52,202 bases of DNA from a phage. The notes beneath the pieces are model-generated. The model was not told where the DNA came from. It was given only the letters and a program-made list of their open reading frames with translations, and made no database searches. The DNA lies in assembly GCA_028524385.1 (NCBI GenBank), contig GCA_028524385.1_3661.2. One strand, given 5' to 3'. Of this stretch, positions 38,829-49,701 are shown in pieces (positions within the stretch are counted from its first letter, which is position 1; every line of letters starts with the position of its first letter). Made by a program: the position numbers and the translations under genes.

Positions 38829-39035
38829 ATGCCTCTTGGAAAGTATATTGTAGCCATGGCAGATGAGAATGGCAAGGTGGATTTCGGAGTTTGCGAGGTT
38901 GTTCTTGCAGGATCTGGCGACTATGTGCACAAAACTGGGATAATTAACGGTCATTTCTACTTTGATTACAACCCTGTTGTGGCGTATATGGCTATGCCAG
39001 AGTTTAAGTTCCCAAAGGATGGTGCTGATGTTTAA
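38829..39035 (+). CDS. hypothetical protein
   Basis: 68-aa ORF; weak SD. Confidence 0.35.
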   Translation: MPLGKYIVAMADENGKVDFGVCEVVLAGSGDYVHKTGIINGHFYFDYNPVVAYMAMPEFKFPKDGADV

Positions 39036-39225
39036 GCTTAAATCCGCATGGAACATTGCTGTAGGTGACGAGATCCGTATTCCAGGTGGAGAAACTATTA
39101 TGAAGATATCTCGTATCGAGTATGAAGGTGACCGTGTATTCCACATCTTTGCAGAAGATGGTCGAGAAATTTATATACAGGCAGGCTCTCACATCTATAT
39201 TTGTAAGAAAGGGGACGACAAATGA
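39028..39225 (+). CDS. hypothetical protein
   Basis: ATG 39028 (SD aaggatgg) overlapping upstream stop; track ORF 38962..39225 has an N-extension overlapping the previous gene. Confidence 0.35.
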   Translation: MFKLKSAWNIAVGDEIRIPGGETIMKISRIEYEGDRVFHIFAEDGREIYIQAGSHIYICKKGDDK

Positions 39226-39554
39226 CAGAGATCATCGTTTCAACTGCAGGGTATGTATTCCTGACAATCATTGCGCTGGCTATTCTGGTGGCGGTGTATG
39301 GATTTGTTATCCTGCCTATTCTTGAGACATTTAGTTTGTGTCGGTGTTGGAGAAAAGCTTACGGACCACAACCGTGGAAAGACTGGTTCCATTTGGTGCG
39401 TATAGCGTTCTCTTATGCCTATGACCACTCTAGCAGTGCATGCGTAACCGGGTACCATGCCTACAACTGGAACTGGGAAGGGTTAGGGAGATGGACTGTT
39501 ACAAAAACTATACCCTTACGGTTGTACAAAGGAAAGAACACACTGGGAGCCTGA
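39222..39554 (+). CDS. predicted membrane protein
   Basis: 110 aa with hydrophobic N-terminal segment (YVFLTIIALAILVAVYGFVILPIL); SD aaagggga. Confidence 0.45.
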   Translation: MTEIIVSTAGYVFLTIIALAILVAVYGFVILPILETFSLCRCWRKAYGPQPWKDWFHLVRIAFSYAYDHSSSACVTGYHAYNWNWEGLGRWTVTKTIPLRLYKGKNTLGA

Positions 39555-39865
39555 TATTTTAAGTTATCAGGTTGCCAGAGATCAGGAGGATTTCTAAAAT
39601 GGATTTCCTCCTTTTGATATTTTACCTGCCATGATATTTTAAAATCCTTAGAAAATCAGAAAATGGATCGAAAACTAAAATGGATTTTTCAGAGTAGGCG
39701 CGACAAGCTGAATCACTCATCCTATCGTTTGCACCATATTCCAGACCACCATTACAGATTTCCCGCACATGCTTACATCTCGCTACTAGAACTTCCTCCA
39801 CTCACCCTTGACCTTTTATAGCAATAATCCAACCACTATCTTGAAGTTGCGGTGCAGCTTTCCAG

Positions 39866-39887
39866 GTACTCGATCTGTTTTTCGTTT
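39866..39887. repeat. 22-bp direct repeat, copy 1
   Basis: gtactcgatctgtttttcgttt repeated exactly at 39931..39952. Confidence 0.75.
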
Positions 39888-39930
39888 CAAATATTGAATT
39901 TTCTGAAAATTTTTCTCGATAAATTTCTCA

Positions 39931-39952
39931 GTACTCGATCTGTTTTTCGTTT
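39931..39952. repeat. 22-bp direct repeat, copy 2
   Basis: Exact copy of 39866..39887; surrounded by recurring aaaatggat and ttttctgRaaat words. Confidence 0.75.
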
Positions 39953-40188
39953 TCTGAATCGGATTTTCTGGAAATCGTTCCGGATCTCGACCTGAAATTT
40001 TTGGGGACGAAATCGATTTTTCGTTTTCAGAAATGGATTTTTAAAATTTGTATATGGAAATATTTTAGGAGGTATTATTTTATATAGAATTGTCACGGTA
40101 GGTAATTAGCATGCTAACTAAATTTATGAAATGCGAAAAGTTCTCATTTAGAACTTTGAATGATAATCATTCTCGTTTGCAGAATAAC

Positions 40189-40230
40189 GGGCAGGCCCGG
40201 TGATTGTCTCCCGGCCCCTGTTGCCCCGGC
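40189..40230. repeat. GC-rich structured element E1
   Basis: gggcaggcccggtgattgtctccc... ; core ccggtgRttgtctccc shared with E2 and E3. Confidence 0.5.
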
Positions 40231-40328
40231 TTGTTATTATAGTATCACGCAGGACAAAGAAGGCAAGGATTTTTTGCATAAATTTTTAAATGATAATGAT
40301 AACCGTTCTCATTTTATGCATCGCCCAT

Positions 40329-40365
40329 CCCCGGTGGTTGTCTCCCCCGTCACCGGTGCCTGCCG
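40329..40365. repeat. GC-rich structured element E2
   Basis: ccccggtggttgtctcccccgtcaccggtgcctgccg; near-identical to reverse complement of E3 (49271..49322). Confidence 0.55.
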
Positions 40366-40443
40366 TCCTTTCGATAGGTATATTGTGCCACCTGGCGGGG
40401 TCGCTGTCAACACCTTTTCGAAAAAAAAAAATTATAACCAGGT

Positions 40444-40492
40444 GCGCCCACCGCCAGGACCTGGCGGCGGGGCCAACCTGGCAGGTCCGCGC
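40444..40492. repeat. GC-rich element E4 with 17-bp palindrome
   Basis: ccgccagg-a-cctggcgg perfect palindrome; CCTGGCGG word recurs at about 40391, 40653 and 49282. Confidence 0.45.
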
Positions 40493-40707
40493 TATAAAGT
40501 GAACAGCTGAAGAAGAGGTACATAAATGAAAGGTAATATTATCCACCTGGGGAAATATAGTAATTAATGGCACGTGAGCTATCCTCCCTGGTTGAGAGGG
40601 CTAAAACTGAAGCGTTGGAACATAAAGAAGAATACGAAAAAATGATGGTTAACCTGGCAGGGGCGGCGGCTGGAGAATTCTACCCAAAAAATAATTTTAC
40701 ATAATGG

Positions 40708-40736
40708 TTGACAGCTCGGATAGTTCTTGTTATTCT
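40708..40736 (+). promoter_or_regulatory. sigma70-type promoter
   Basis: TTGACA-17 nt-TATTCT upstream of gene 40790. Confidence 0.45.
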
Positions 40737-40789
40737 TATTCTCGCAAGGTGAACAACACCACACTAATTAACAGAGAGGATAAGAAATC

Positions 40790-40987
40790 ATGAACGCATA
40801 CGGAATCAAATCACGTCGCAACGCTCGCCAGGTGGTCACCAATCAAGTGATTTGCCGGGTGGATGTAACCATCAACAACGGGCAAGGCCTTTATAAATTT
40901 CGTCGCGGTCATAGCTATACCCTGCAACAGCTTAACCGTTGCGCCCTGACAAAAGGTCAGATCAACCACTGGTTTAATAAAAAATAA
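40790..40987 (+). CDS. small basic hypothetical protein
   Basis: 65-aa ORF with SD agagagga. Confidence 0.45.
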   Translation: MNAYGIKSRRNARQVVTNQVICRVDVTINNGQGLYKFRRGHSYTLQQLNRCALTKGQINHWFNKK

Positions 40988-40990
40988 ATA

Positions 40991-41019
40991 TTGACATGTA
41001 GTCTGACACAAAATATACT
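40991..41019 (+). promoter_or_regulatory. sigma70-type promoter
   Basis: TTGACA-17 nt-TATACT. Confidence 0.55.
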
Positions 41020-41051
41020 GAAATCACAAAAGACACTAAGAGGATAAAATC

Positions 41052-41450
41052 ATGAAAACTACAACCTTTAATTTTGATAATGCTGACTTCTCTTTTTCTG
41101 ATGTTAAGAACTGCCGCCGTGAGCGTGGATTCTACAAGGCTTATAATCTGGTTGGCCTAGACGATGATAATAATTTACACGAAGTAGCCGAGATCCGGTA
41201 TTATGCCGCCTCCAGCGGTAACACTCATTATTGCGTCTTTTGGATGCACGACAGCAAGAACAATAAGTACGGTTATACTGGTGGCAAGGCGAGCGGTCAC
41301 GGTTATGATAAGGCCAATGCAGCGCTTGAAAGCGCGTTAAATGCTATGGGGATCACTGCCAACGGCTGGATCTATGAAGATGAATTTTTGTCAGCACTTG
41401 CTGCCCACCTGGGGTATAAAAAGCACATTGTGACATGCGCCCACGAATAA
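41052..41450 (+). CDS. hypothetical protein
   Basis: 132-aa ORF with SD aagagga. Confidence 0.45.
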   Translation: MKTTTFNFDNADFSFSDVKNCRRERGFYKAYNLVGLDDDNNLHEVAEIRYYAASSGNTHYCVFWMHDSKNNKYGYTGGKASGHGYDKANAALESALNAMGITANGWIYEDEFLSALAAHLGYKKHIVTCAHE

Positions 41451-41461
41451 AAAAAAAATTA

Positions 41462-41489
41462 TTGACACGCTGCAAAATTAAAGTAAACT
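41462..41489 (+). promoter_or_regulatory. sigma70-type promoter preceded by A10 tract
   Basis: A10 (41449-41458) then TTGACA-16 nt-TAAACT; 5'-proximal hairpin ggcgggaa-tgt-ttcccgcc at 41500-41518. Confidence 0.5.
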
Positions 41490-41537
41490 AGGCACAAAAG
41501 GCGGGAATGTTTCCCGCCAACACAAAGGAAAAAGATC

Positions 41538-41933
41538 ATGAATAAGAACGTACGCCGCATCATGAACGAACTGGCAAACGATGAAAAAATTATTGATATG
41601 CATTTGGTCAACATTTGCCGCCGTTGTGTAACATATAACAACCGCGCCGCAAAAGCGCGTGAGATGAACGCAAAAGGCACCTTAAAGCCCTTTCAGGTGG
41701 TTGTAAAATCTATAACTAATGCAGCAGGCCAGGCGCATGACCACAACAACGAGAGCACTAATATTGATCCGTCTTACGTAATGAAACGGATCCGGACTTG
41801 CAAGAATAAAGAGCAGGTGTATAACGTCATAGATTGGCTGGACTCCATGGGCGATGTGGTTTATAATAGGTTTTCTGCAGCTATCGAGATCCAGCTTGAC
41901 AGACTGGACGGGAAAGTACTGAAAACTTACTAA
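41538..41933 (+). CDS. hypothetical protein
   Basis: 131-aa ORF with SD aaaggaaaaag. Confidence 0.45.
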   Translation: MNKNVRRIMNELANDEKIIDMHLVNICRRCVTYNNRAAKAREMNAKGTLKPFQVVVKSITNAAGQAHDHNNESTNIDPSYVMKRIRTCKNKEQVYNVIDWLDSMGDVVYNRFSAAIEIQLDRLDGKVLKTY

Positions 41934-41980
41934 ATTTATTTTTAGATGGCCTTGACTCCAGGGCCATCAATAAAGTAAAC
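41934..41980. repeat. conserved 48-nt intergenic hairpin element, copy 1
   Basis: atttatttttaGATGGCCTTGactcCAGGGCCATCaataaagtaaac directly after stop codon; 10-bp stem, 4-nt loop, embedded TTGACT. Confidence 0.7.
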
Positions 41981-42013
41981 TAATCCTAGTTAAGCTAAAA
42001 AGGAGGCTTGAAG

Positions 42014-42133
42014 ATGAGCACTACACGCCAGCACACAAAGGTGACCATCATCGTTTGCATCATTGGGTACATCCTGGCGCAAATGTTGATGAGTAGCGCT
42101 AACAGTTTTGCAAAATTTTTCTTAAATTTTTAA
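42014..42133 (+). CDS. small hydrophobic peptide (39 aa, not in ORF track)
   Basis: ATG with strong SD aaaggagg; MSTTRQHTKVTIIVCIIGYILAQMLMSSANSFAKFFLNF has one predicted TM segment. Confidence 0.35.
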   Translation: MSTTRQHTKVTIIVCIIGYILAQMLMSSANSFAKFFLNF

Positions 42134-42161
42134 TTGACAAGCTGACTTAGATCGATATACT
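42134..42161 (+). promoter_or_regulatory. sigma70-type promoter
   Basis: TTGACA-16 nt-TATACT; 5'-proximal hairpin gggaa-aac-ttccc at 42174-42186. Confidence 0.55.
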
Positions 42162-42211
42162 AAGCACATCAACGGGAAAACTTCCCAGAACACACAAAAG
42201 GAGAAAACACC

Positions 42212-42553
42212 ATGACTACTATGACCGCCGCAGAAAAAGCCATGCAGATCGCCGCGCTGAAAAAACAGATCGCAGACCTTGAGAATAAGATCGATAACTT
42301 TGAAATCGACGAGGACAAGTACGACGAAAACTATGATGAATGGTTAGACGAGATCTACGGCGAAATTATGATCGGAAACATTTCTTTTCTTCCATCGCGT
42401 ATCCTCAAGGAGCTAGATCCTATCGCTTACCGCTGCGGATTTAGCGACTACATCGACAGCCTGGATATTGAGGACGATGAAGAATACCAGGAATTGCAGA
42501 CAGAGCTTGAGGAAGTGAAAGAAGAGCTTTCAGAACTGGAAGAAAACGAATAA
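42212..42553 (+). CDS. acidic hypothetical protein
   Basis: 113-aa ORF with SD aaaggag; very acidic C-terminal half. Confidence 0.45.
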   Translation: MTTMTAAEKAMQIAALKKQIADLENKIDNFEIDEDKYDENYDEWLDEIYGEIMIGNISFLPSRILKELDPIAYRCGFSDYIDSLDIEDDEEYQELQTELEEVKEELSELEENE

Positions 42554-42600
42554 ATTTATTTTTAGATGGCCTTGACTCCAGGGCCATCAATAAAGTAAAC
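42554..42600. repeat. conserved 48-nt intergenic hairpin element, copy 2
   Basis: Identical to copy 1, again starting right after a stop codon. Confidence 0.7.
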
Positions 42601-42639
42601 TTTACACTGTTAACACTGAACTAATGAGGAGTTAAAACC

Positions 42640-42885
42640 ATGGCAGCACTAATTACCAAATACTATGCGCCCACCAACACCAAAAGCGCCCGGATCATGG
42701 TAAAAGGCTTCGGACGTAAAAAGGTTTACACCTGGGATTATTCCCTAGACATGGAAGACAACTACACCAACGCGATGACCGATTTTATTAACGAGCTGAA
42801 TACGCGGATCTTAACAAATTATAAAATTACCGACATTGCTTATATAGGTGAAGGCGGGATCTGTTTTGTAGGCATTGTGAAATAG
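42640..42885 (+). CDS. hypothetical protein
   Basis: 81-aa ORF with SD gaggag. Confidence 0.45.
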   Translation: MAALITKYYAPTNTKSARIMVKGFGRKKVYTWDYSLDMEDNYTNAMTDFINELNTRILTNYKITDIAYIGEGGICFVGIVK

Positions 42886-42886
42886 T

Positions 42887-42936
42887 TATTTTTTCGGTGG
42901 TCCTGGCTGCAGGGCCATCTATAAAGATAATTTACT
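42887..42936. repeat. variant copy of intergenic hairpin element
   Basis: ttattttttcGGTGGTCCTGgctgCAGGGCCATCtataaag; 5' arm differs from canonical copies but still pairs with the identical 3' arm (G-U wobbles); -35-like TTGACT lost. Confidence 0.55.
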
Positions 42937-42960
42937 AACACCATGAAAGGAGAAAGTAAC

Positions 42961-43314
42961 ATGATCAGCGGGGCTAGTTTTATTATTGGCGCTATTGCTA
43001 CGGCTTTAATTGTAAACAAGATCCAGGATAAAAAGGAAAGAGGAAGTACCACCCTTGCAGAATATCCATTTTGGACATTTAACGATAACGAAGACTATAT
43101 TGTAAAGTATAAAAATAAAGAAGGTGACCAAGTAACACCTCGACCGATCCCAGCTTACAAGATGCAGGAAACACTATACCGCCTGGAGGCGGGAGGCGCA
43201 AAAATTGTAGACTTTTGGGGATACGATCACACAGATCAGGAAGCTATAAAGCGGCGTATCAGGGCTATTCAGGCCAATATTGAAGTTAGCAAGGGGGGAA
43301 TATATGAAGATTAA
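42961..43314 (+). CDS. membrane-anchored hypothetical protein
   Basis: ATG 42961 with SD aaaggag 8 nt upstream (track ORF starts at 42943 without SD); N-terminal TM segment ISGASFIIGAIATALIV. Confidence 0.45.
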   Translation: MISGASFIIGAIATALIVNKIQDKKERGSTTLAEYPFWTFNDNEDYIVKYKNKEGDQVTPRPIPAYKMQETLYRLEAGGAKIVDFWGYDHTDQEAIKRRIRAIQANIEVSKGGIYED

Positions 43315-43501
43315 TTTTGAGAAGATTGTAAAGCGGTCTCATGATTCCGAAGAGCTGCCGGAACGCCGCCAGCGTAACAATAAACTGAATAAGCCAAAAA
43401 GATTTGGGAAGATCTGGCGGAATCATTATGATCGTAAATTGCCGGGCCTCCTTTTGGAACGTGAACGGCAGGCGGAACGATACCGCCACAAAGGCAACTA
43501 A
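43304..43501 (+). CDS. small basic hypothetical protein
   Basis: ATG 43304 with SD aagggggg, overlapping upstream stop; Arg/Lys-rich. Confidence 0.35.
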   Translation: MKINFEKIVKRSHDSEELPERRQRNNKLNKPKRFGKIWRNHYDRKLPGLLLERERQAERYRHKGN

Positions 43502-43508
43502 CAACCAA

Positions 43509-43540
43509 CGCCCCGCCATCGTGCGGGGCTTTTTATTTCT
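43509..43540 (+). terminator. intrinsic terminator
   Basis: ccccgc-catcgt-gcgggg followed by ctttttatttct. Confidence 0.65.
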
Positions 43541-43659
43541 ATCCTACGAATAGCGCCCCTGGTTGGCCCCACAACGCCCTAAAGGCCCCCTACTCATGCA
43601 ATCCCCTTTCTTAACCTGAAAACATCGTCAAAGGCTGTTTTAAAGCGTTAAAAATGTTG

Positions 43660-43688
43660 TTGACATCTAAAAATGCTCTAGATATACT
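43660..43688 (+). promoter_or_regulatory. sigma70-type promoter
   Basis: TTGACA-17 nt-TATACT. Confidence 0.55.
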
Positions 43689-43724
43689 AATCACATCAAA
43701 GCGAGAAGTAAGGGGGTAAACGCC

Positions 43725-43985
43725 ATGCGTAAATTGAAAAATTTTGATAAAGTCGATGTTGTCCTAAATAATTTTTACTACTGCAATAATAAAGCCGTTT
43801 GGTGGCGTGATAGTTCCACCGATAAGGTTAAGGCGCGCTTTCTCCAGGGGCACTGGCAAGGCCGCCCAGTGATTAAAATCCTGGGGCAATTGGTAGCGTT
43901 TAAAAATTGCCGCCGTGTTGATGACGTTGAAGAGATTCTAAACATTTTACGCCACAATAATTTAAAAAATAGTGTTGACAAGTAA
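43725..43985 (+). CDS. hypothetical protein
   Basis: 86-aa ORF with SD aaggggg. Confidence 0.45.
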   Translation: MRKLKNFDKVDVVLNNFYYCNNKAVWWRDSSTDKVKARFLQGHWQGRPVIKILGQLVAFKNCRRVDDVEEILNILRHNNLKNSVDK

Positions 43986-44002
43986 GTCTCAATAAGTATA
44001 CT
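43975..44002 (+). promoter_or_regulatory. sigma70-type promoter
   Basis: TTGACA-16 nt-TATACT overlapping end of upstream gene; 5' hairpin cgggaa..ttcccg downstream. Confidence 0.5.
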
Positions 44003-44058
44003 TAAACACACAGACGGGAAACTTCCCGCCACTAACAAAGAAAATAGGAGAAAATATC

Positions 44059-44682
44059 ATGACCACCGTTAACATTACTACAGGTTACAATTTATCTTTC
44101 GACGTGCTGACCGACGAACAAAAAGAAAAAGCCGTTGAAATGGTCCGCGAAAGAGAAGAACACAGCGGGGATAACTTTTTTGCAGAAAGTGTAATTGAAT
44201 ACTATAAAGAATATGTTTTTCCAGAGTACGGGCTTGAAGATACAGATGTACATTGGTCCGGCTTTTGGTGCCAGGGTGACGGCGCGTCAATCAGTGCTGA
44301 AAACGTGGATTTAGAAAAATTCTTGCGTAAAGTCAAGTCTCTGACTAAATTCCGCTCAATTCGTCACTTGTTCGGCACAATGCACGATGGCGAGCTATCC
44401 GCAAGTGTTGAACGTGACACATACAGCCGATATAGTCACGAAAACACTGTAAACGGATACATCGATACTACATGGCTGGACCTGACCACCAAGCAAGAAA
44501 ACAAAGTGGAAGATCTGGAAGAGCTGATCACCGAGACTGTACGTGAACTATCTCGCAAGGTTTACGTAGACTTGGAAGCGGCCTATTTGGAGCAATTCAC
44601 ATCTGAAAACTTGATCGGCCTTATCGAGGCCAATGATTGGCGGTTTGATGTCGATGAATATGGTGAGATGACTTTTTCATAA
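44059..44682 (+). CDS. acidic hypothetical protein
   Basis: 207-aa ORF with SD aggag. Confidence 0.45.
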   Translation: MTTVNITTGYNLSFDVLTDEQKEKAVEMVREREEHSGDNFFAESVIEYYKEYVFPEYGLEDTDVHWSGFWCQGDGASISAENVDLEKFLRKVKSLTKFRSIRHLFGTMHDGELSASVERDTYSRYSHENTVNGYIDTTWLDLTTKQENKVEDLEELITETVRELSRKVYVDLEAAYLEQFTSENLIGLIEANDWRFDVDEYGEMTFS

Positions 44683-44690
44683 ATAAAGTG

Positions 44691-44718
44691 TTGCAATAAC
44701 CTAAAAACCTGCTATATT
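44691..44718 (+). promoter_or_regulatory. sigma70-type promoter
   Basis: TTGCAA-16 nt-TATATT; 5' hairpin ggggcaa-gacg-tttgcccc at 44728-44746. Confidence 0.45.
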
Positions 44719-44769
44719 AAAACTCAAGGGGCAAGACGTTTGCCCCACACAAAATAAAGAGGAAAAATC

Positions 44770-45150
44770 ATGAAAAACACTACCAAAGCTATTGACACCG
44801 TTATGTTTAACCTGGTTACCTTTCGCGAGGATATGAAAGATCTTCCACGTGAAACAGTGAGTGATCACATTGAAAACTATCGCAAACTAATCAAAGAGTT
44901 GCCTTTAAAACGTGACCAGTATGCGGCTAACGCTATGCTCAACGCCATGATCAAAAAGATGATCCAGTGTGATTTAACTCTGGCCTATGATTATGCAGGT
45001 GGTCGTTTTGCAGTATACAATCAGCCCGTGCCTGGTATGAGCACCACCGAAGAATTGCACGCGTTAAATCTAAAACAAGATGTATGGGATAACATGCCCC
45101 GCGTGGTGGTGTGGGCAGAAAGCGGAAAGATTTACGGCGATAATTTTTAA
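44770..45150 (+). CDS. hypothetical protein
   Basis: 126-aa ORF with SD agagga. Confidence 0.45.
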   Translation: MKNTTKAIDTVMFNLVTFREDMKDLPRETVSDHIENYRKLIKELPLKRDQYAANAMLNAMIKKMIQCDLTLAYDYAGGRFAVYNQPVPGMSTTEELHALNLKQDVWDNMPRVVVWAESGKIYGDNF

Positions 45151-45160
45151 TCAGGTAACA

Positions 45161-45186
45161 GGCGGCATATTTGCCGCCTTATTGTT
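45161..45186 (+). terminator. intrinsic terminator
   Basis: ggcggca-tatt-tgccgcc followed by ttattgtt. Confidence 0.6.
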
Positions 45187-45214
45187 AAACAGAACTGCAA
45201 AAGAGGTACATAGA

Positions 45215-45586
45215 ATGGAATTTATTATTTTGGCCGTATTAGTTGCCTTGTTTAACGCCTGGATCGCTGGCAAGATGGGTAGATCCGCCTTTTTATGGTT
45301 TATTATATCTATTTTCCTGGGGGTGGTTGCAACTATTGTACTTGTTATCCTTGCAATTGTTGACAAAGGCGATAATAGAAAGGGTAAAGTATTTTCCGAC
45401 CTGTATGACGCTCAAACTTTTGTTAACGCCTATTATAGTGATCTTCCGGTCTCCTTGCGCTGCAGCCTGGCGCAACAAGTTTTTGATGAAGCTAAAACCA
45501 GAGATCAAGCCCATGAGATATGTTTAACTGAGGCGGATCGCCTATTTGAGAGGAATAGAAAATATGTGGGCCAACCGTTTAAATAA
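45215..45586 (+). CDS. predicted membrane protein
   Basis: ATG 45215 with SD aagagg (track ORF 45080 start runs through the terminator); two hydrophobic segments (MEFIILAVLVALFNAWIAG..., FLWFIISIFLGVVATIVLVILAIV). Confidence 0.45.
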   Translation: MEFIILAVLVALFNAWIAGKMGRSAFLWFIISIFLGVVATIVLVILAIVDKGDNRKGKVFSDLYDAQTFVNAYYSDLPVSLRCSLAQQVFDEAKTRDQAHEICLTEADRLFERNRKYVGQPFK

Positions 45587-45809
45587 TGCCACGTTAATTA
45601 ATCCCTTTAGTGAAGATTTGAAGCCAGCCGCCTGGCGTGACGGATTCAATAACGAACGCTTTATTTTCAGGCCTGATCTTGAGGAATTTTATAACAATGG
45701 ATCGAACAACGACAGAGATAATTTTTCTTGTGATGTGCGTGGTGATGGTACTCCTGGGGGCCATTGTAAACCACGTCACTACTACCAGAAGGAAAGGGGG
45801 AGACGATGA
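45564..45809 (+). CDS. hypothetical protein
   Basis: ATG 45564 with SD gagagg (track start 45546 is TTG); overlaps upstream gene end. Confidence 0.35.
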   Translation: MWANRLNNATLINPFSEDLKPAAWRDGFNNERFIFRPDLEEFYNNGSNNDRDNFSCDVRGDGTPGGHCKPRHYYQKERGRR

Positions 45810-45925
45810 CAACCAAGGATAAGCCCAGCACCGATAAGGTGCGCCGGGTTATGGTATGGCTGGAGATCATCGCCCTTGAAATATTGTTAGGCGTAGGGAT
45901 GTACTTTATCGCTGTAAGTAACTAA
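45806..45925 (+). CDS. small hydrophobic peptide (39 aa, not in ORF track)
   Basis: ATG overlaps upstream stop (ATGA); SD aagggggag; MTTKDKPSTDKVRRVMVWLEIIALEILLGVGMYFIAVSN. Confidence 0.35.
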   Translation: MTTKDKPSTDKVRRVMVWLEIIALEILLGVGMYFIAVSN

Positions 45926-45930
45926 GAACG

Positions 45931-45958
45931 GCCCCCGATCATGGGGGCTTATCTTTTT
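45931..45958 (+). terminator. intrinsic terminator
   Basis: gccccc-gatcat-gggggc followed by ttatcttttt. Confidence 0.6.
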
Positions 45959-46068
45959 CAAAAAATTTTTCTTCCGGGGTGTTGCAATCTGGTCCGCAAT
46001 ATGGATAATAACAATCAACGGGGAAACATCCCCACCACACAAACAAAAGCCTGAAGAGGAGAAAGAAA

Positions 46069-46269
46069 ATGAGCAAGAATATTCGCGTTATCAATTTTAA
46101 AAAAGATGAAAAACTGGCTGTTCTGGTCGATGGTCAAGAAATCTTCAAGGGCGATTATGAAGATCATCAAACGGCGATTAGTATCACTCGCGTGATTGGT
46201 TACCATAATTTTTACCCCCAAGGCGCTGAGGCAGCGGTTAAACGAATCAAAGAGATTGTAGGCCTGTAA
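46069..46269 (+). CDS. hypothetical protein
   Basis: 66-aa ORF with SD gaggag, preceded by TATGGATAAT promoter-like box and 5' hairpin. Confidence 0.45.
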   Translation: MSKNIRVINFKKDEKLAVLVDGQEIFKGDYEDHQTAISITRVIGYHNFYPQGAEAAVKRIKEIVGL

Positions 46270-46317
46270 AATTTATTTTTAGATGGCCTTGACTCCAGGG
46301 CCATCAATAAAGTAAAT
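46270..46317. repeat. conserved 48-nt intergenic hairpin element, copy 3
   Basis: Identical core to copies at 41934 and 42554, again directly after a stop codon. Confidence 0.7.
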
Positions 46318-46362
46318 TTAAACCCTGTTAAAATACCACGCAGTTAACAAGGAGTGATAGAC

Positions 46363-46662
46363 ATGTTTATCCAGGCTAATAATCTTTATTTCTTTGATGG
46401 TCAGATCGTAGATGGTGTGGAAGTGGAGATCACCGGGTGCCCTGGCGGTCAGGCTATGACTTTTCGGAATAATGCCTTTGATGATTCTCATATCGTTATG
46501 AGAATGGAAGTTACGAAGCTGGACGATAAGAAAACACTCATTGACTATTCCGTGAAAGATCATCCAGACTACCACATGATTTATGGTGATTTGTGCATTG
46601 TTGACCGTGACAAGGTGGGCGGCATTGTGATCGCTATTGTGAACGATGTTTTCTCTGAATAA
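46363..46662 (+). CDS. hypothetical protein
   Basis: ATG 46363 with SD aaggag 8 nt upstream (track starts at GTG 46354). Confidence 0.45.
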   Translation: MFIQANNLYFFDGQIVDGVEVEITGCPGGQAMTFRNNAFDDSHIVMRMEVTKLDDKKTLIDYSVKDHPDYHMIYGDLCIVDRDKVGGIVIAIVNDVFSE

Positions 46663-46723
46663 TTCCGGCAAATGGTGCAAAATAAGGCCCCTAGCAGGGC
46701 CTGCAGCAATATAATCACATAAA

Positions 46724-46755
46724 GGCCATGCGGTTGCATGGCCTTTATTATTTTG
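46724..46755 (+). terminator. intrinsic terminator
   Basis: ggccatgc-ggtt-gcatggcc followed by tttattatttt. Confidence 0.65.
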
Positions 46756-46886
46756 GCGTTACAACGGCATACGGGGCGCTTAAAAAATTTTTAAAGAAGT
46801 ACTTGCATCATTCCCGACAATATGGATAATAAGAGTTGTCGAGGGGGAGGCCCCAATCATTAACCAGATAGATAGGAGTTAAAATC

Positions 46887-47171
46887 ATGGCTATTGTTAC
46901 CGCTGGCGATGTAGTAAAAATGGAAGCGAAGTATTTAAAAGCTGGTATGCATATCATCCGCAATGATCTTGAACTGGTCCTCACTATGGTTGATTATAAC
47001 TCCGGTCAAGATTATCCAAGTGTTGACTACTTTTTTGAGTATGTTGATGACGAATTGAAAGAAGAAGAAGCCTACCAGGGTGAATTCTGCAACTACTTTT
47101 GCCCGGATGAGGTTGTAAAAGTTATTTATCAACCTGGCGTACCTTTCCCGCTGCACGCTATCAATAAATAA
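46887..47171 (+). CDS. hypothetical protein
   Basis: 94-aa ORF with SD taggag. Confidence 0.45.
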   Translation: MAIVTAGDVVKMEAKYLKAGMHIIRNDLELVLTMVDYNSGQDYPSVDYFFEYVDDELKEEEAYQGEFCNYFCPDEVVKVIYQPGVPFPLHAINK

Positions 47172-47229
47172 ATAAACCTGGCGGGGCCGAAAAGGCCCCA
47201 ATTATGAAAATAAAGAGAGGTAAATCATC

Positions 47230-47463
47230 ATGATGGAACAAATTAAACGAGCCGAGGCTATTAATGGCAATGTGATCTATTTTGTTAGCAATAACGAGAA
47301 AGGCGTACCATATGCGGCGGTAATAGTACAGCCTGACGGTGATTATTGGTTTACTGTATACGGATCTTATTCTTTCGGGCGTCCGGTGCATGATAGAATT
47401 TTGAAAGTAGCGAACCCTACCGGGAAGAATATCACGGCAGAAAAATTTTTTGAAAATAGTTGA
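47230..47463 (+). CDS. hypothetical protein
   Basis: 77-aa ORF with SD agagagg, preceded by hairpin ggggcc-gaaaa-ggcccc. Confidence 0.45.
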   Translation: MMEQIKRAEAINGNVIYFVSNNEKGVPYAAVIVQPDGDYWFTVYGSYSFGRPVHDRILKVANPTGKNITAEKFFENS

Positions 47464-47487
47464 CATGACCATATAAGACTGTAATAT
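47460..47487 (+). promoter_or_regulatory. sigma70-type promoter
   Basis: TTGACA-16 nt-TAATAT; 5' hairpin ggggc-aacaa-gcccc at 47499-47513. Confidence 0.5.
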
Positions 47488-47535
47488 ATAAATCAAAGGG
47501 GGCAACAAGCCCCAACCACAAAGAGGATAAAAATC

Positions 47536-47724
47536 ATGGCTATTATTGCAAAGACTGAGATCGTGGGGTTAGATTCTATTCTCCTAGCATATGAGGAAGC
47601 TATAAAGATGTACGTGGTTTCCTATGGTGAATATATCCGTGAATATGAATCTATTGATCTGGCTTTTGAATGTTATATTCGCCAGGTAAATAAAGCATAT
47701 GATGATTATCGTTAAAATAGTTTG
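47536..47724 (+). CDS. small hypothetical protein (62 aa by my reading; absent from ORF track)
   Basis: ATG with SD aagagga downstream of promoter 47460. Not listed in the supplied track although above its apparent length cutoff, so my reading frame may contain an error. Confidence 0.3.
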
Positions 47725-47748
47725 ACAACATTTTCAAATAGTGTAAGA
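47721..47748 (+). promoter_or_regulatory. sigma70-type promoter
   Basis: TTGACA-16 nt-TAAGAT. Confidence 0.5.
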
Positions 47749-47786
47749 TGTATCACGTAGGGCGGCCTGGATTAGAGGATAATATA

Positions 47787-47933
47787 ATGAAAACTTTCAA
47801 CGCAACAGCCTCGACAATTGGTTATATTATTACAGTGCAAGCCGTGGATCTGGTAGCGGCAGCAAACAAGATTAAAAGAATGCTCCCGATAGGTAGTGAA
47901 TTTTCCGTTTGGGAAGTAAAAAATAAATCTTAA
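47787..47933 (+). CDS. small hypothetical protein
   Basis: ATG 47787 with SD gaggat (track starts at 47748). Confidence 0.4.
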   Translation: MKTFNATASTIGYIITVQAVDLVAAANKIKRMLPIGSEFSVWEVKNKS

Positions 47934-48013
47934 CGATAATTTGTTATCTGATAGAATGTATTTCGTAGGGCGGGGCAATAAGGCAACGCCCCCACATCGG
48001 AAAGGAAAAGATT

Positions 48014-48250
48014 ATGAGTATTGCAACAGTATTAACCGCCGTTAAAACCGCTGAATCATCCGGCTTGCATGTTGAGATTATAGATCAACCAGGTGGCGAT
48101 CTCCTTGTCCAGGTTTACCCGCCGAAAGTAGGGGATGATTATTATTGGTGCTATTCTGATACGTTCGAACAAGTAGACACGAAAGCGATCACGGCTTTTA
48201 TTTTAAAAGCTACTGAAGAAAATAACTTTCATTATAACATCAATCAATAA
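48014..48250 (+). CDS. hypothetical protein
   Basis: 78-aa ORF with SD aaaggaaaag, preceded by GC hairpin. Confidence 0.45.
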   Translation: MSIATVLTAVKTAESSGLHVEIIDQPGGDLLVQVYPPKVGDDYYWCYSDTFEQVDTKAITAFILKATEENNFHYNINQ

Positions 48251-48292
48251 ACCATAAGCGGGGCAGTAACGCCCATCAATGAGGGTAGAATC

Positions 48293-48397
48293 ATGTTAGA
48301 GAAAATTTTCACGGTTGTAATAGTGGGCCTGGTGTTATCGGTTGGAGTGGTTGCGACTCTGGCTAACATGATCCTATCTTCCAACGGTATCGGTTAA
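48293..48397 (+). CDS. small hydrophobic peptide (34 aa, not in ORF track)
   Basis: ATG with SD gagggtag; MLEKIFTVVIVGLVLSVGVVATLANMILSSNGIG. Confidence 0.3.
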   Translation: MLEKIFTVVIVGLVLSVGVVATLANMILSSNGIG

Positions 48398-48407
48398 GGT
48401 GTAACAA

Positions 48408-48623
48408 ATGATCACTAACAAAACAGGCAAAACAGAATTTTTACGCGGCTTGCAAATAGGTAAGCCTGAGATCTGGCATTGCACTAAAACACCACGTGAC
48501 GAAATGAAAGACTTCACCGCCACACTGCAACGGGTAAAGATATCCATCACGCAGAAAAAAGCCTTGATAGTGGTGGAAGGTGAGATCCCCCAAACCGTTG
48601 TTATAGTTGAGCGTACAGCATAG
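48408..48623 (+). CDS. hypothetical protein
   Basis: 71-aa ORF with SD aaggtg. Confidence 0.4.
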   Translation: MITNKTGKTEFLRGLQIGKPEIWHCTKTPRDEMKDFTATLQRVKISITQKKALIVVEGEIPQTVVIVERTA

Positions 48624-48714
48624 TTTAATTTATAGCGATACCTGAAAATTAACCAACAAAGCATAAACAGGCGGTTACCGCCGCCTTAAACGTAGCGGAA
48701 AGAGGCTAGACACA

Positions 48715-49005
48715 ATGAAAAAGATGATCGCAGTAGTTGCCCTGGTTGTTGGACTTAACGCACCTGTAATGGCTAAAGAGCTGGCAAAAGAGGTTGATCT
48801 AACGGATATCCATGCCGTCAATCAAATCGGGGTTACTTATCGCTTATGCCTTGCCGCTAAAACTTTTAATGACGGTACAACAGAGTACTACGGATTCGAG
48901 GGTATCCGGTGCGGTGAGCTTGCACGCGACCTTAAGGAAGATCCAGACCTGGAAGATCTGCCGATGACGGTAAACGGTAAAGCTTATGTAAACCGCCAAC
49001 AATAA
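48715..49005 (+). CDS. secreted / periplasmic hypothetical protein
   Basis: N-terminal signal peptide MKKMIAVVALVVGLNAPVMA; SD agaggc. Confidence 0.45.
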   Translation: MKKMIAVVALVVGLNAPVMAKELAKEVDLTDIHAVNQIGVTYRLCLAAKTFNDGTTEYYGFEGIRCGELARDLKEDPDLEDLPMTVNGKAYVNRQQ

Positions 49006-49021
49006 GTAAGGGCGATGTAAA

Positions 49022-49213
49022 ATGAATACTGAACAAGTCAGAAAGGTATTAGCAGTACTGCGTTATCATAATCATAGAAAGGTGATAGACGATCCTGATT
49101 ATGTAGATTCAAGCCTAGAAGAGGATACACTACAAGCCATAAGTAACATGCAAGAATTGCTAAAGCGCATGACAGAGAAAAACCGACCTGACTACATAGG
49201 CGAAAAAATATAA
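49022..49213 (+). CDS. hypothetical protein
   Basis: 63-aa ORF. Confidence 0.4.
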   Translation: MNTEQVRKVLAVLRYHNHRKVIDDPDYVDSSLEEDTLQAISNMQELLKRMTEKNRPDYIGEKI

Positions 49214-49227
49214 GATTTATAAACTAC

Positions 49228-49258
49228 AAAACAGGGCTTGCAATGGTCCTGTTTTTTG
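49228..49258 (+). terminator. intrinsic terminator
   Basis: acagggc-ttgcaatg-gtcctgt followed by tttttt. Confidence 0.65.
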
Positions 49259-49270
49259 TTATACTTGTTT

Positions 49271-49322
49271 CACGGCAGGCACCTGGCGACGGGGGGGGGG
49301 AGACAACCACCGGGCCTGCCTG
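49271..49322. repeat. GC-rich structured element E3 with G10 homopolymer
   Basis: cacggcaggcacctggcgac-G10-agacaaccaccgggcctgcctg; reverse complement matches E1/E2 cores; G10 at 49291-49300. Confidence 0.55.
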
Positions 49323-49345
49323 TCATATAAGAACTATAAAAACCG

Positions 49346-49374
49346 TTGACATCTGCCATGGGGTGGGGTAACAT
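49346..49374 (+). promoter_or_regulatory. sigma70-type promoter
   Basis: TTGACA-17 nt-TAACAT. Confidence 0.45.
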
Positions 49375-49428
49375 TTATCTTGAAGGGGCAAAAGTGCTCA
49401 CACAACAACCAGAAGAGAGGAAAACACC

Positions 49429-49701
49429 ATGTCAAGCTGGATTAATCAAGAAGTCGAATCACGTTTCAATGCTATTTGGGATCTCATCGAAAAAGAAGAC
49501 GGCACATCAAGCCCTTACCTCAATAATCTGGAATTTCATTTCGTGGAAGCAATGAACGCAGAATACAACCACAAAGGCGGTGCTGATGAGTTCGCCAGGG
49601 GATACGGATTCGATAACGCCAACCAAATGATCGAGGCGGTTGTTCTCCAGGCTGAAGAAGATTATCAATTAAAAACACTTGAGTTTTGCCGCCGGAAGTA
49701 A
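49429..49701 (+). CDS. hypothetical protein
   Basis: 90-aa ORF with SD agagagga. Confidence 0.45.
   Translation: MSSWINQEVESRFNAIWDLIEKEDGTSSPYLNNLEFHFVEAMNAEYNHKGGADEFARGYGFDNANQMIEAVVLQAEEDYQLKTLEFCRRK

Follow-up and report, generated by a model that had tools for sequence, protein, structure and literature searches.

A 52,202-nucleotide (nt) stretch of phage DNA (NCBI GenBank assembly GCA_028524385.1, contig GCA_028524385.1_3661.2; hereafter the window, at its full length) carries three very short open reading frames, here called ORF1, ORF2 and ORF3, that almost certainly are selected protein-coding genes for single-pass membrane peptides of 34-39 amino acids (aa). With a probability of roughly 0.55, we propose that they are bona fide membrane-peptide genes, accompanied by a probable overlapping fourth, and that their products act as accessory modulators. 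The window comes from a Vequintavirus (rV5-like) myophage of Escherichia coli. Positions 41500-49000 match 246 phage records at ~92% nucleotide identity, and nearly all of these are Vequintavirus (rV5-like) E. coli myophages. The loci compared below are from 21 Vequintavirus and 4 Stephanstirmvirinae and were fetched individually from GenBank phages; a scan of IMG/VR using a 207-aa neighbour protein returned two close loci only. Gene names beginning with bas54 are those of phage MaxBurger, which is Bas54.

The first-pass annotation had described the three ORFs as having strong Shine-Dalgarno (SD) sites and one predicted transmembrane segment each. The ORFs lie at the claimed positions with the claimed lengths, one SD site was located for each, and the best 19-residue Kyte-Doolittle hydropathy values are 2.06 for ORF1, 2.15 for ORF2 and 2.71 for ORF3.

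ORF1, 42014..42133, + strand: 39 aa, MSTTRQHTKVTIIVCIIGYILAQMLMSSANSFAKFFLNF; one transmembrane segment at about residues 10-28; PHROG 16391; orthologue bas54_0107
SD site of ORF1, 42000..42006, + strand: AAGGAGG, 7 nt ahead of the ATG; AAGGAGG or AAGGGGG in all relatives
ORF2, 45806..45925, + strand: 39 aa, MTTKDKPSTDKVRRVMVWLEIIALEILLGVGMYFIAVSN; PHROG 13629; orthologue bas54_0117
SD site of ORF2, 45794..45802, + strand: AAGGGGGAG; invariant in all relatives
ORF3, 48293..48397, + strand: 34 aa, MLEKIFTVVIVGLVLSVGVVATLANMILSSNGIG; one transmembrane segment; PHROG 14631; orthologue bas54_0125
SD site of ORF3, 48281..48285, + strand: GAGGG, 7 nt ahead of the ATG; conserved among allele-A genomes

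Hydropathy values of 1.9 or more occur in just 10 of the 232 ATG-initiated ORFs of 25-60 aa across the window. Following the positive-inside rule, the ORF1 and ORF2 peptides would be oriented with the N-terminus inside (ORF1 has 2 basic residues on its N-terminal side and ORF2 has 5), and the orientation of ORF3 is ambiguous.

Selection on the three reading frames

Conservation in related phages had been suggested as a check on these frames, and it speaks in their favour. At ~10% nucleotide divergence the ORFs are unbroken wherever a relative has the locus (20 of 20 sequences for ORF1, 22 of 22 for ORF2 and 23 of 23 for ORF3, the window sequence itself being counted). Indels within them are in-frame only, divergent alleles keep their length, and the SD sites are conserved among relatives. 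The pooled pairwise ratio of nonsynonymous to synonymous differences (pN/pS) is 0.15 for ORF1, 0.19 for ORF2 and 0.29 for ORF3 when read in frame (0.42 for ORF3 if its two alleles, described below, are pooled), whereas the remaining two frames of the three ORFs give 0.7-2.8 and contain many stops. Third codon positions hold 22 of the 41 variable sites in ORF1 (binomial p=0.006) and 13 of 23 in ORF2 (p=0.019). As controls for the selection test we used eight small ORFs of the same stretch, two of which offered too little data. In many genomes the control ORFs are interrupted or have a different length, and most have pN/pS of 1.2-3.5; two antisense controls have lower values (0.36 and 0.56), yet are mostly broken. 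Five annotated neighbour genes give 0.07-0.12. The intact frames, low pN/pS and third-position variation together indicate coding sequences under purifying selection.

Frames this short could arise as chance ORFs devoid of function, and the 232 counted above illustrate how readily the window yields them. A chance origin would, however, have to account for intactness in all relatives, for variation concentrated at third positions and for conserved SD sites, in a setting where control ORFs are mostly broken. It seems extremely improbable to us and appears refuted as far as the comparative data reach.

The first-pass annotation had also called these genes unannotated, which is true solely of its own ORF track. 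In public data they are coding sequence (CDS) features of A51.2, where all three are labelled "putative membrane protein", and of MiataMamis, phita32, FFH2, EdH4, Murica and MaxBurger, where they are hypothetical proteins, as well as of other phages. The proteins bas54_0107, bas54_0117 and bas54_0125 of MaxBurger, A512_78, A512_88 and A512_96 of A51.2, and ORF174 and ORF164 of FFH2 are the same proteins at syntenic positions. The window peptides are 85-92% identical to the MaxBurger orthologues and show no substantive difference from these GenBank relatives; the window holds ordinary allelic variants. By tblastn, ORF1 is found in 113 phage records, ORF2 in 119 and ORF3 in 138. Each peptide matches a PHROG profile from end to end (ORF1, 16391, E=1.1e-31; ORF2, 13629, E=7.6e-32; ORF3, 14631, E=2.2e-19), and all three families are listed as being of unknown function. 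Pfam and NCBIfam scans of the three peptides found no family at E<=10. For ten neighbour proteins, Pfam and NCBIfam gave no meaningful match and PHROGs gave only families of unknown function. A large protein search with a padded ORF3 query returned close relatives only, some of them called with longer N-termini. The genes are thus already in databases, and what is new with respect to most records is only the overlapping-frame candidate at 45697..45822.

Constraint within the peptides is specific to position. The ORF2 peptide has a basic N-terminus followed by a transmembrane segment that holds two invariant glutamates (E20 and E26). Its residues 17-36 (VWLEIIALEILLGVGMYFIA) do not differ between the window and any of the 20 relatives, and its N-terminus is variable, with an in-frame 3-nt insertion in two relatives; the start region of the gene is invariant. 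ORF3 occurs as allele A (MLEKIF...) and allele B (MKQKLID...), both of which encode hydrophobic peptides of 34 aa that end in ..ILSSNGIG or ..ILSSHGIG. Allele B likewise matches PHROG 14631 (E=4.7e-23). The C-terminal half is conserved (consensus ATMANMILSSNGIG, and ATLANMILSSNGIG in the window). As DNA, the 5' halves of the two alleles are unalignable and the 3' half is common to both (loci L011, L013-L016, L023, L025 and L027), a split that suggests a recombination junction mid-way in this 105-nt gene. A variable hairpin lies upstream of ORF3, and the upstream genes differ widely among genomes. For ORF1, a metagenomic relative (L004) carries a divergent allele of 38 aa with its own SD site.

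The ORF3 module is missing from JEP1 (Vequintavirus) and from one metagenomic contig, and ORF3 is found in Stephanstirmvirinae too (phi92, phAPEC8, TSP7_1 and PD06). Its usual downstream partner is not obligate:

71-aa gene, 48408..48623, + strand: PHROG 5988; starts 10 nt after ORF3

ORF3 is intact where this gene is absent (phi92) or truncated (PD06, VB-EcoM-WM). Upstream of the homologues of the 71-aa gene in Certrevirus and Seunavirus, we found no ORF3, just a hairpin and an SD site. The independence of ORF3 from the 71-aa gene points to a separate accessory gene common to two E. coli phage subfamilies. Its presence in Vequintavirinae and Stephanstirmvirinae, together with its absence from this place in Certrevirus and Seunavirus (phages mostly of other hosts), would fit a role tied to E. 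coli.

A candidate overlapping gene ahead of ORF2

A unit of three cistrons, 45215..45586, 45564..45809 and ORF2, ends with ORF2, and its middle gene contains a further reading frame.

123-aa protein, 45215..45586, + strand: first gene of the ORF2 unit; two N-terminal hydrophobic segments; pN/pS 0.08
81-aa ORF (f0), 45564..45809, + strand: PHROG 12060; orthologue bas54_0116
Candidate fourth gene, 45697..45822, + strand: 41 aa, MDRTTTEIIFLVMCVVMVLLGAIVNHVTTTRRKGGDDDNQG; hydropathy 2.75; +1 frame within f0
Intrinsic-terminator-like hairpin GGCCCCCGATCATGGGGGCT with T-run, 45930..45959, + strand: hairpin at 45930-45949; conserved; closes the ORF2 unit

The orthologue of the first gene, bas54_0115, is annotated as 'putative holin', and the terminator after ORF2 is annotated as such in EdH4 and Murica. 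An ATGA overlap between ORF2 and the upstream stop codon, pointed out in the first-pass annotation, is real in the window but is not conserved among relatives, since f0 stops 24 nt earlier in about half of them.

A hydropathy scan flagged the candidate, which shares sequence with the tail of f0 and with the initial 17 nt of ORF2. Its frame is open in 21 of 21 sequences compared (a 1-nt insertion in pangalan shortens its tail only), and full-length tblastn matches occur in 118 of 119 phage records. Selection on the two frames changes over at its ATG. Purifying selection on f0 is found in the first ~44 codons only, with pN/pS of 0.30 before position 45697, where the +1 frame has 0.67. The ~37 C-terminal codons of f0 (45697-45809) show none, at pN/pS ~1.5, and between 45697 and 45760 the values are 1.51 in f0 and 0.31 in the +1 frame. 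By parsimony, 26 of 54 changes fall at third positions of the +1 frame (p=0.017). An 18-nt block spanning the candidate ATG (45684-45701) shows no variation, against 31% variable sites in the region, and only the start region of ORF2 is conserved to the same degree.

The case for a gene is thus made by the switch of frame, the excess of third-position changes and the invariance around the start. It is weakened by the fact that a stop-free frame is not significant by itself (P=0.37), by whole-length tests that are marginal (P=0.04-0.09), and by the spacing of the SD-like sequence GAGGAA, which lies 12 nt from the ATG. The candidate has no PHROG match and just 4 clusters among 5.8 billion proteins, one of which is a 41-aa CDS in phage Gotham; hardly any genome record lists it. 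We put the odds at about even that a 41-aa transmembrane peptide is encoded at 45697..45822 in a dual-coding stretch, be it from its own ATG or as a +1 frameshift isoform. A possible slippery site, TTT_T (45687-45690), follows GAGGAA (45681-45686) and falls inside the invariant block or adjacent to it. With TAT, a sense codon that is not rare, in the A site of the 0 frame, this site lacks a slow A-site codon. Initiation at the in-frame ATG at 45697 is the simpler route; a frameshift product, which would provide the 81-aa gene with a membrane-anchored isoform, is less likely. If the candidate is a gene, the unit at 45215-45925 would yield three consecutive membrane proteins, which might form one small phage membrane complex, and one of the three would be absent from almost every annotation published for this phage group.

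Possible roles of the peptides

We suggest, somewhat tentatively, that the peptides modulate membrane proteins. Early in infection they would enter the inner membrane of the host, ORF1 being made from its own hairpin-embedded promoter (described below) and ORF2 as the final cistron of a terminator-closed unit together with a two-transmembrane protein. Once inserted, they may bind particular membrane proteins of the host or the phage and modulate them. Plausible accessory purposes would be envelope takeover, exclusion of superinfecting phages or the countering of membrane-associated host defences. Specific contacts are argued for by the position-specific constraint, that is, by the invariance of ORF2 residues 17-36 with E20 and E26 and by the retention of the C-terminal motif of ORF3 while its N-terminal half is swapped. 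Non-specific membrane damage is a less likely role.

Experimental data exist for the orthologues in Bas54, for which a HIDEN-SEQ transposon map is available (bioRxiv 10.1101/2025.11.20.689424, Extended Data Table 8):

bas54_0107 (ORF1): 6 of 6 TA sites hit, non-essential
bas54_0117 (ORF2): 11 of 11 TA sites hit, non-essential
bas54_0125 (ORF3): 7 of 9 TA sites hit, reduced fitness
bas54_0115 (123-aa two-transmembrane protein): 27 of 28 TA sites hit, non-essential
bas54_0116 (81-aa ORF): 14 of 15 TA sites hit, non-essential

Two of the three genes are therefore dispensable on E. coli K-12 and the third carries a mild fitness cost, which fits an accessory role. In the comparison of K-12 with uropathogenic E. 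coli (UPEC), bas54_0107 (log2 fold change, log2FC, -0.59) and bas54_0117 (+0.25) are unchanged, and bas54_0125 has a log2FC of -2.25 (p=0.036, adjusted 0.24; bioRxiv 10.1101/2025.11.20.689424). Of the genes on either side of ORF1, bas54_0106, upstream (here 41538..41933), has a log2FC of -3.18 with an adjusted p of ~0, and bas54_0108, downstream (here 42212..42553), is depleted in strain CFE303 according to the same paper (bioRxiv 10.1101/2025.11.20.689424). Both neighbours are thus conditionally important in clinical E. coli isolates, which suggests an accessory host-interaction region around ORF1 and makes 41538..41933 and 42212..42553 candidates for genes of host range or anti-defence. The sheets Data S6 and S7 (K-12_vs_CFE303 and CFE311) share the '311' command line and their closing rows, and we took the figures as those for CFE311; the resampling table for CFE303 appears to be missing from the copy of the supplement used (bioRxiv 10.1101/2025.11.20.689424). 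An accessory role would agree with the non-essentiality of the genes, with neighbours that are needed conditionally and with the occurrence of ORF3 in E. coli phages of two subfamilies.

Several points weigh against the proposal that these are membrane peptides with a modulating function. Their transmembrane character is a hydropathy prediction, and in the literature we found neither ribosome profiling nor infected-cell proteomics that would show translation or membrane location directly. Transcriptomic or functional studies of these genes were likewise not found, with the exception of the HIDEN-SEQ essentiality map of Bas54. As the peptides are similar to no characterised protein, the mechanism is drawn by analogy only. 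Their 'early' timing is read from the promoter consensus and from a neighbour resembling T7 gp1.1. In Bas54, the orthologues of ORF1 and ORF2 have no phenotype in K-12 or in UPEC CFE311. ORF3 taken by itself is not significant (adjusted p 0.24), and its effect could be polar, because the block bas54_0123-0129 drops jointly (log2FC -2.1 to -2.9).

Small hydrophobic peptides with one segment and host-type promoters could also be membrane-depolarising toxins of the type I kind (Hok, TisB) that bring about rapid host shut-off, as suggested in the first-pass annotation, and the peptides, at 34-39 aa and hydropathies of 2.06-2.71, have this build. We nevertheless consider this unlikely. No Pfam or NCBIfam toxin family matches at E<=10, and no antisense promoter-like site overlaps the ORFs, the nearest such site on the minus strand being at 45363 in a consensus scan that may miss weak promoters. 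A simple hydrophobic or amphipathic helix would need neither the invariant glutamates of ORF2 nor the fixed polar C-terminus of ORF3, and in Bas54 disruption costs the phage little or nothing. We give still less credence to the idea that the peptides, chiefly ORF2 and the overlapping candidate, are components of lysis timing (a holin, antiholin or lysis regulator). The 'putative holin' label of bas54_0115 in the same unit and the prospect of three membrane proteins encoded in series at 45215-45925 invite such a reading, but bas54_0115, 0116 and 0117 accept insertions at 93-100% of TA sites, and the unit is distant from the spanins (bas54_0001 and 0002) and the wall hydrolases (bas54_0030 and 0065). 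In the published data on this close relative, the orthologues thus show neither the linkage to endolysin or spanin genes nor the requirement for plaques that are expected of holins. The peptides also lack the charged C-terminus typical of holins, their C-terminal flanks (ANSFAKFFLNF, SN and ANMILSSNGIG) having 1, 0 and 0 basic residues.

About equally improbable, in our view, is that the ORFs are leaders or coupling devices whose translation matters and whose peptides do not, with ORF3 serving the 71-aa gene and ORF1 serving 42212..42553. The arrangement around ORF3 is suggestive of coupling, as 10 nt separate its stop from the next ATG, the downstream SD site AAGGTG overlaps its stop codon, and its 3' half is conserved at the nucleotide level in both alleles. 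Coupling would not, however, call for purifying selection at the amino-acid level or for hydrophobicity retained along the entire ORFs, and the gene after ORF1 has a strong promoter-like site of its own, at 42134-42161 in the gap between the two. The 71-aa gene, moreover, works without ORF3 in Certrevirus and Seunavirus. We rejected ORF3 as a mere coupling device for the next gene, since it is kept in phi92, which lacks that gene, and in PD06 and VB-EcoM-WM, which have it in truncated form.

Modulator peptides of the kind we propose have counterparts in bacteria. The toxins Hok, TisB, Ldr and Ibs and the regulators AcrZ, MgrB and KdpF are 20-50 aa long with one transmembrane helix, and polar helix residues in small inner-membrane regulators and type I toxins often mediate partner binding. 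The peptides described here are alike in length class and in having a single transmembrane helix; they differ from these and from ShoB in that they match no family, show no antisense RNA signal in the promoter scan and are genes of phage operons. Among phage proteins, Gp11 of Staphylococcus phage PhiNM1 is reportedly a small early membrane protein that targets host envelope functions, and Imm of T4 is a superinfection-exclusion protein. T4 Spackle (Sp) has the same function (PMC7677548). The window peptides would resemble Gp11 and T4 Imm and Sp in being small, in residing in the membrane or periplasm, in being made ahead of replication and in being dispensable on laboratory hosts. In contrast, the peptides of the window are shorter (34-41 aa) and have no sequence similarity to these proteins; no similarity to the Imm/Sp family was found, nor did any Pfam family match. 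As judged by the features tested, they resemble the class of small early phage membrane proteins and fall in none of the toxin, holin or exclusion families that have been characterised.

Phage annotation routinely misses small membrane proteins, and functions in host takeover, exclusion and anti-defence recur among them. The three genes, with a probable fourth, that are under selection in the therapeutically used rV5-like group therefore provide a short candidate list for functional work. No concept is changed by them, as this kind of gene is already known.

Promoters and repeats of the surrounding region

In the rV5 genome paper, the same-strand block that contains the three genes is described as "88 mainly small ORFs", with E. 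coli-type promoters across the whole genome and 15 predicted transmembrane proteins (PMC3606486). A consensus scan of this small-gene block gave 35 sigma-70-type promoter matches versus 20.5 expected, and this promoter consensus suggests that the block would be expressed early. Two such sites flank ORF1:

Promoter-like hairpin site before ORF1, 41945..41981, + strand: perfect 24-nt hairpin GATGGCCTTGACTCCAGGGCCATC (41945-41968)
Promoter-like site after ORF1, 42134..42161, + strand: TTGACA-16-TATACT, 11 of 12 consensus matches, kept in relatives

In the first of these, the -35 hexamer TTGACT lies inside the loop of the hairpin and TAAACT follows 18 nt further on; the hairpin and its -10 are kept in 10 genomes. 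The second, which serves the following gene (42212..42553), begins directly behind the stop codon of ORF1 (42131-42133). The hairpin GATGGCCTTGACTCCAGGGCCATC has three exact copies on the + strand (41945-41968, 42565-42588 and 46282-46305), where none is expected by chance. Every copy is intergenic, marks a gene boundary, has TTGACT in the loop and is followed 18 nt downstream by TAAACT or TAAATT.

Early promoters embedded in stem-loops are known from the PeSL cassettes of T4-type phages (PMC2839356, PMC4122927). The GATGGCCTTGACTCCAGGGCCATC copies are similar in being a perfect, conserved hairpin with a sigma-70-type promoter whose -35 box is in the loop, repeated at gene and module boundaries. 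They differ in belonging to another phage family and in sequence, and the likeness concerns the regulatory context, not the peptides. Murica lists two sites equivalent to these copies as terminators. The repeat also gives rise to spurious minus-strand ORFs that start MMALESRPSKNKF. We considered whether ORF1, ORF2 and ORF3 are themselves artefacts of the repeated hairpin and rejected this, as the repeat yields the MMALESRPSKNKF ORFs instead.

An Rfam scan of 39000-49500 returned no match. Upstream of the three genes, iteron-like direct repeats occupy ~39856-40041 (three copies of 47-62 nt, spaced by 65-74 nt), and a second repeat pair, ~130 nt apart, lies at ~40120-40430. This repeat region (39856-40430) corresponds to bas54_0100-0102, ORFs that begin with VTG or TTG and translate implausibly. 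The HIDEN-SEQ calls for these three are unclassified, essential (with 0 of 11 TA sites hit) and strong fitness defect (bioRxiv 10.1101/2025.11.20.689424). The region is probably an essential non-coding element (an origin or RNA) and not a set of protein genes. A GC-rich motif, CCCGGTG(A/G)TTGTCTCCC, occurs at 40196-40212 (+), 40330-40346 (+) and 49298-49314 (-), three copies against 0.09 expected. GGCAGGC flanks at least two of the copies, and a hairpin could form from GGCAGGC...GCCTGCC in the copy on the minus strand.

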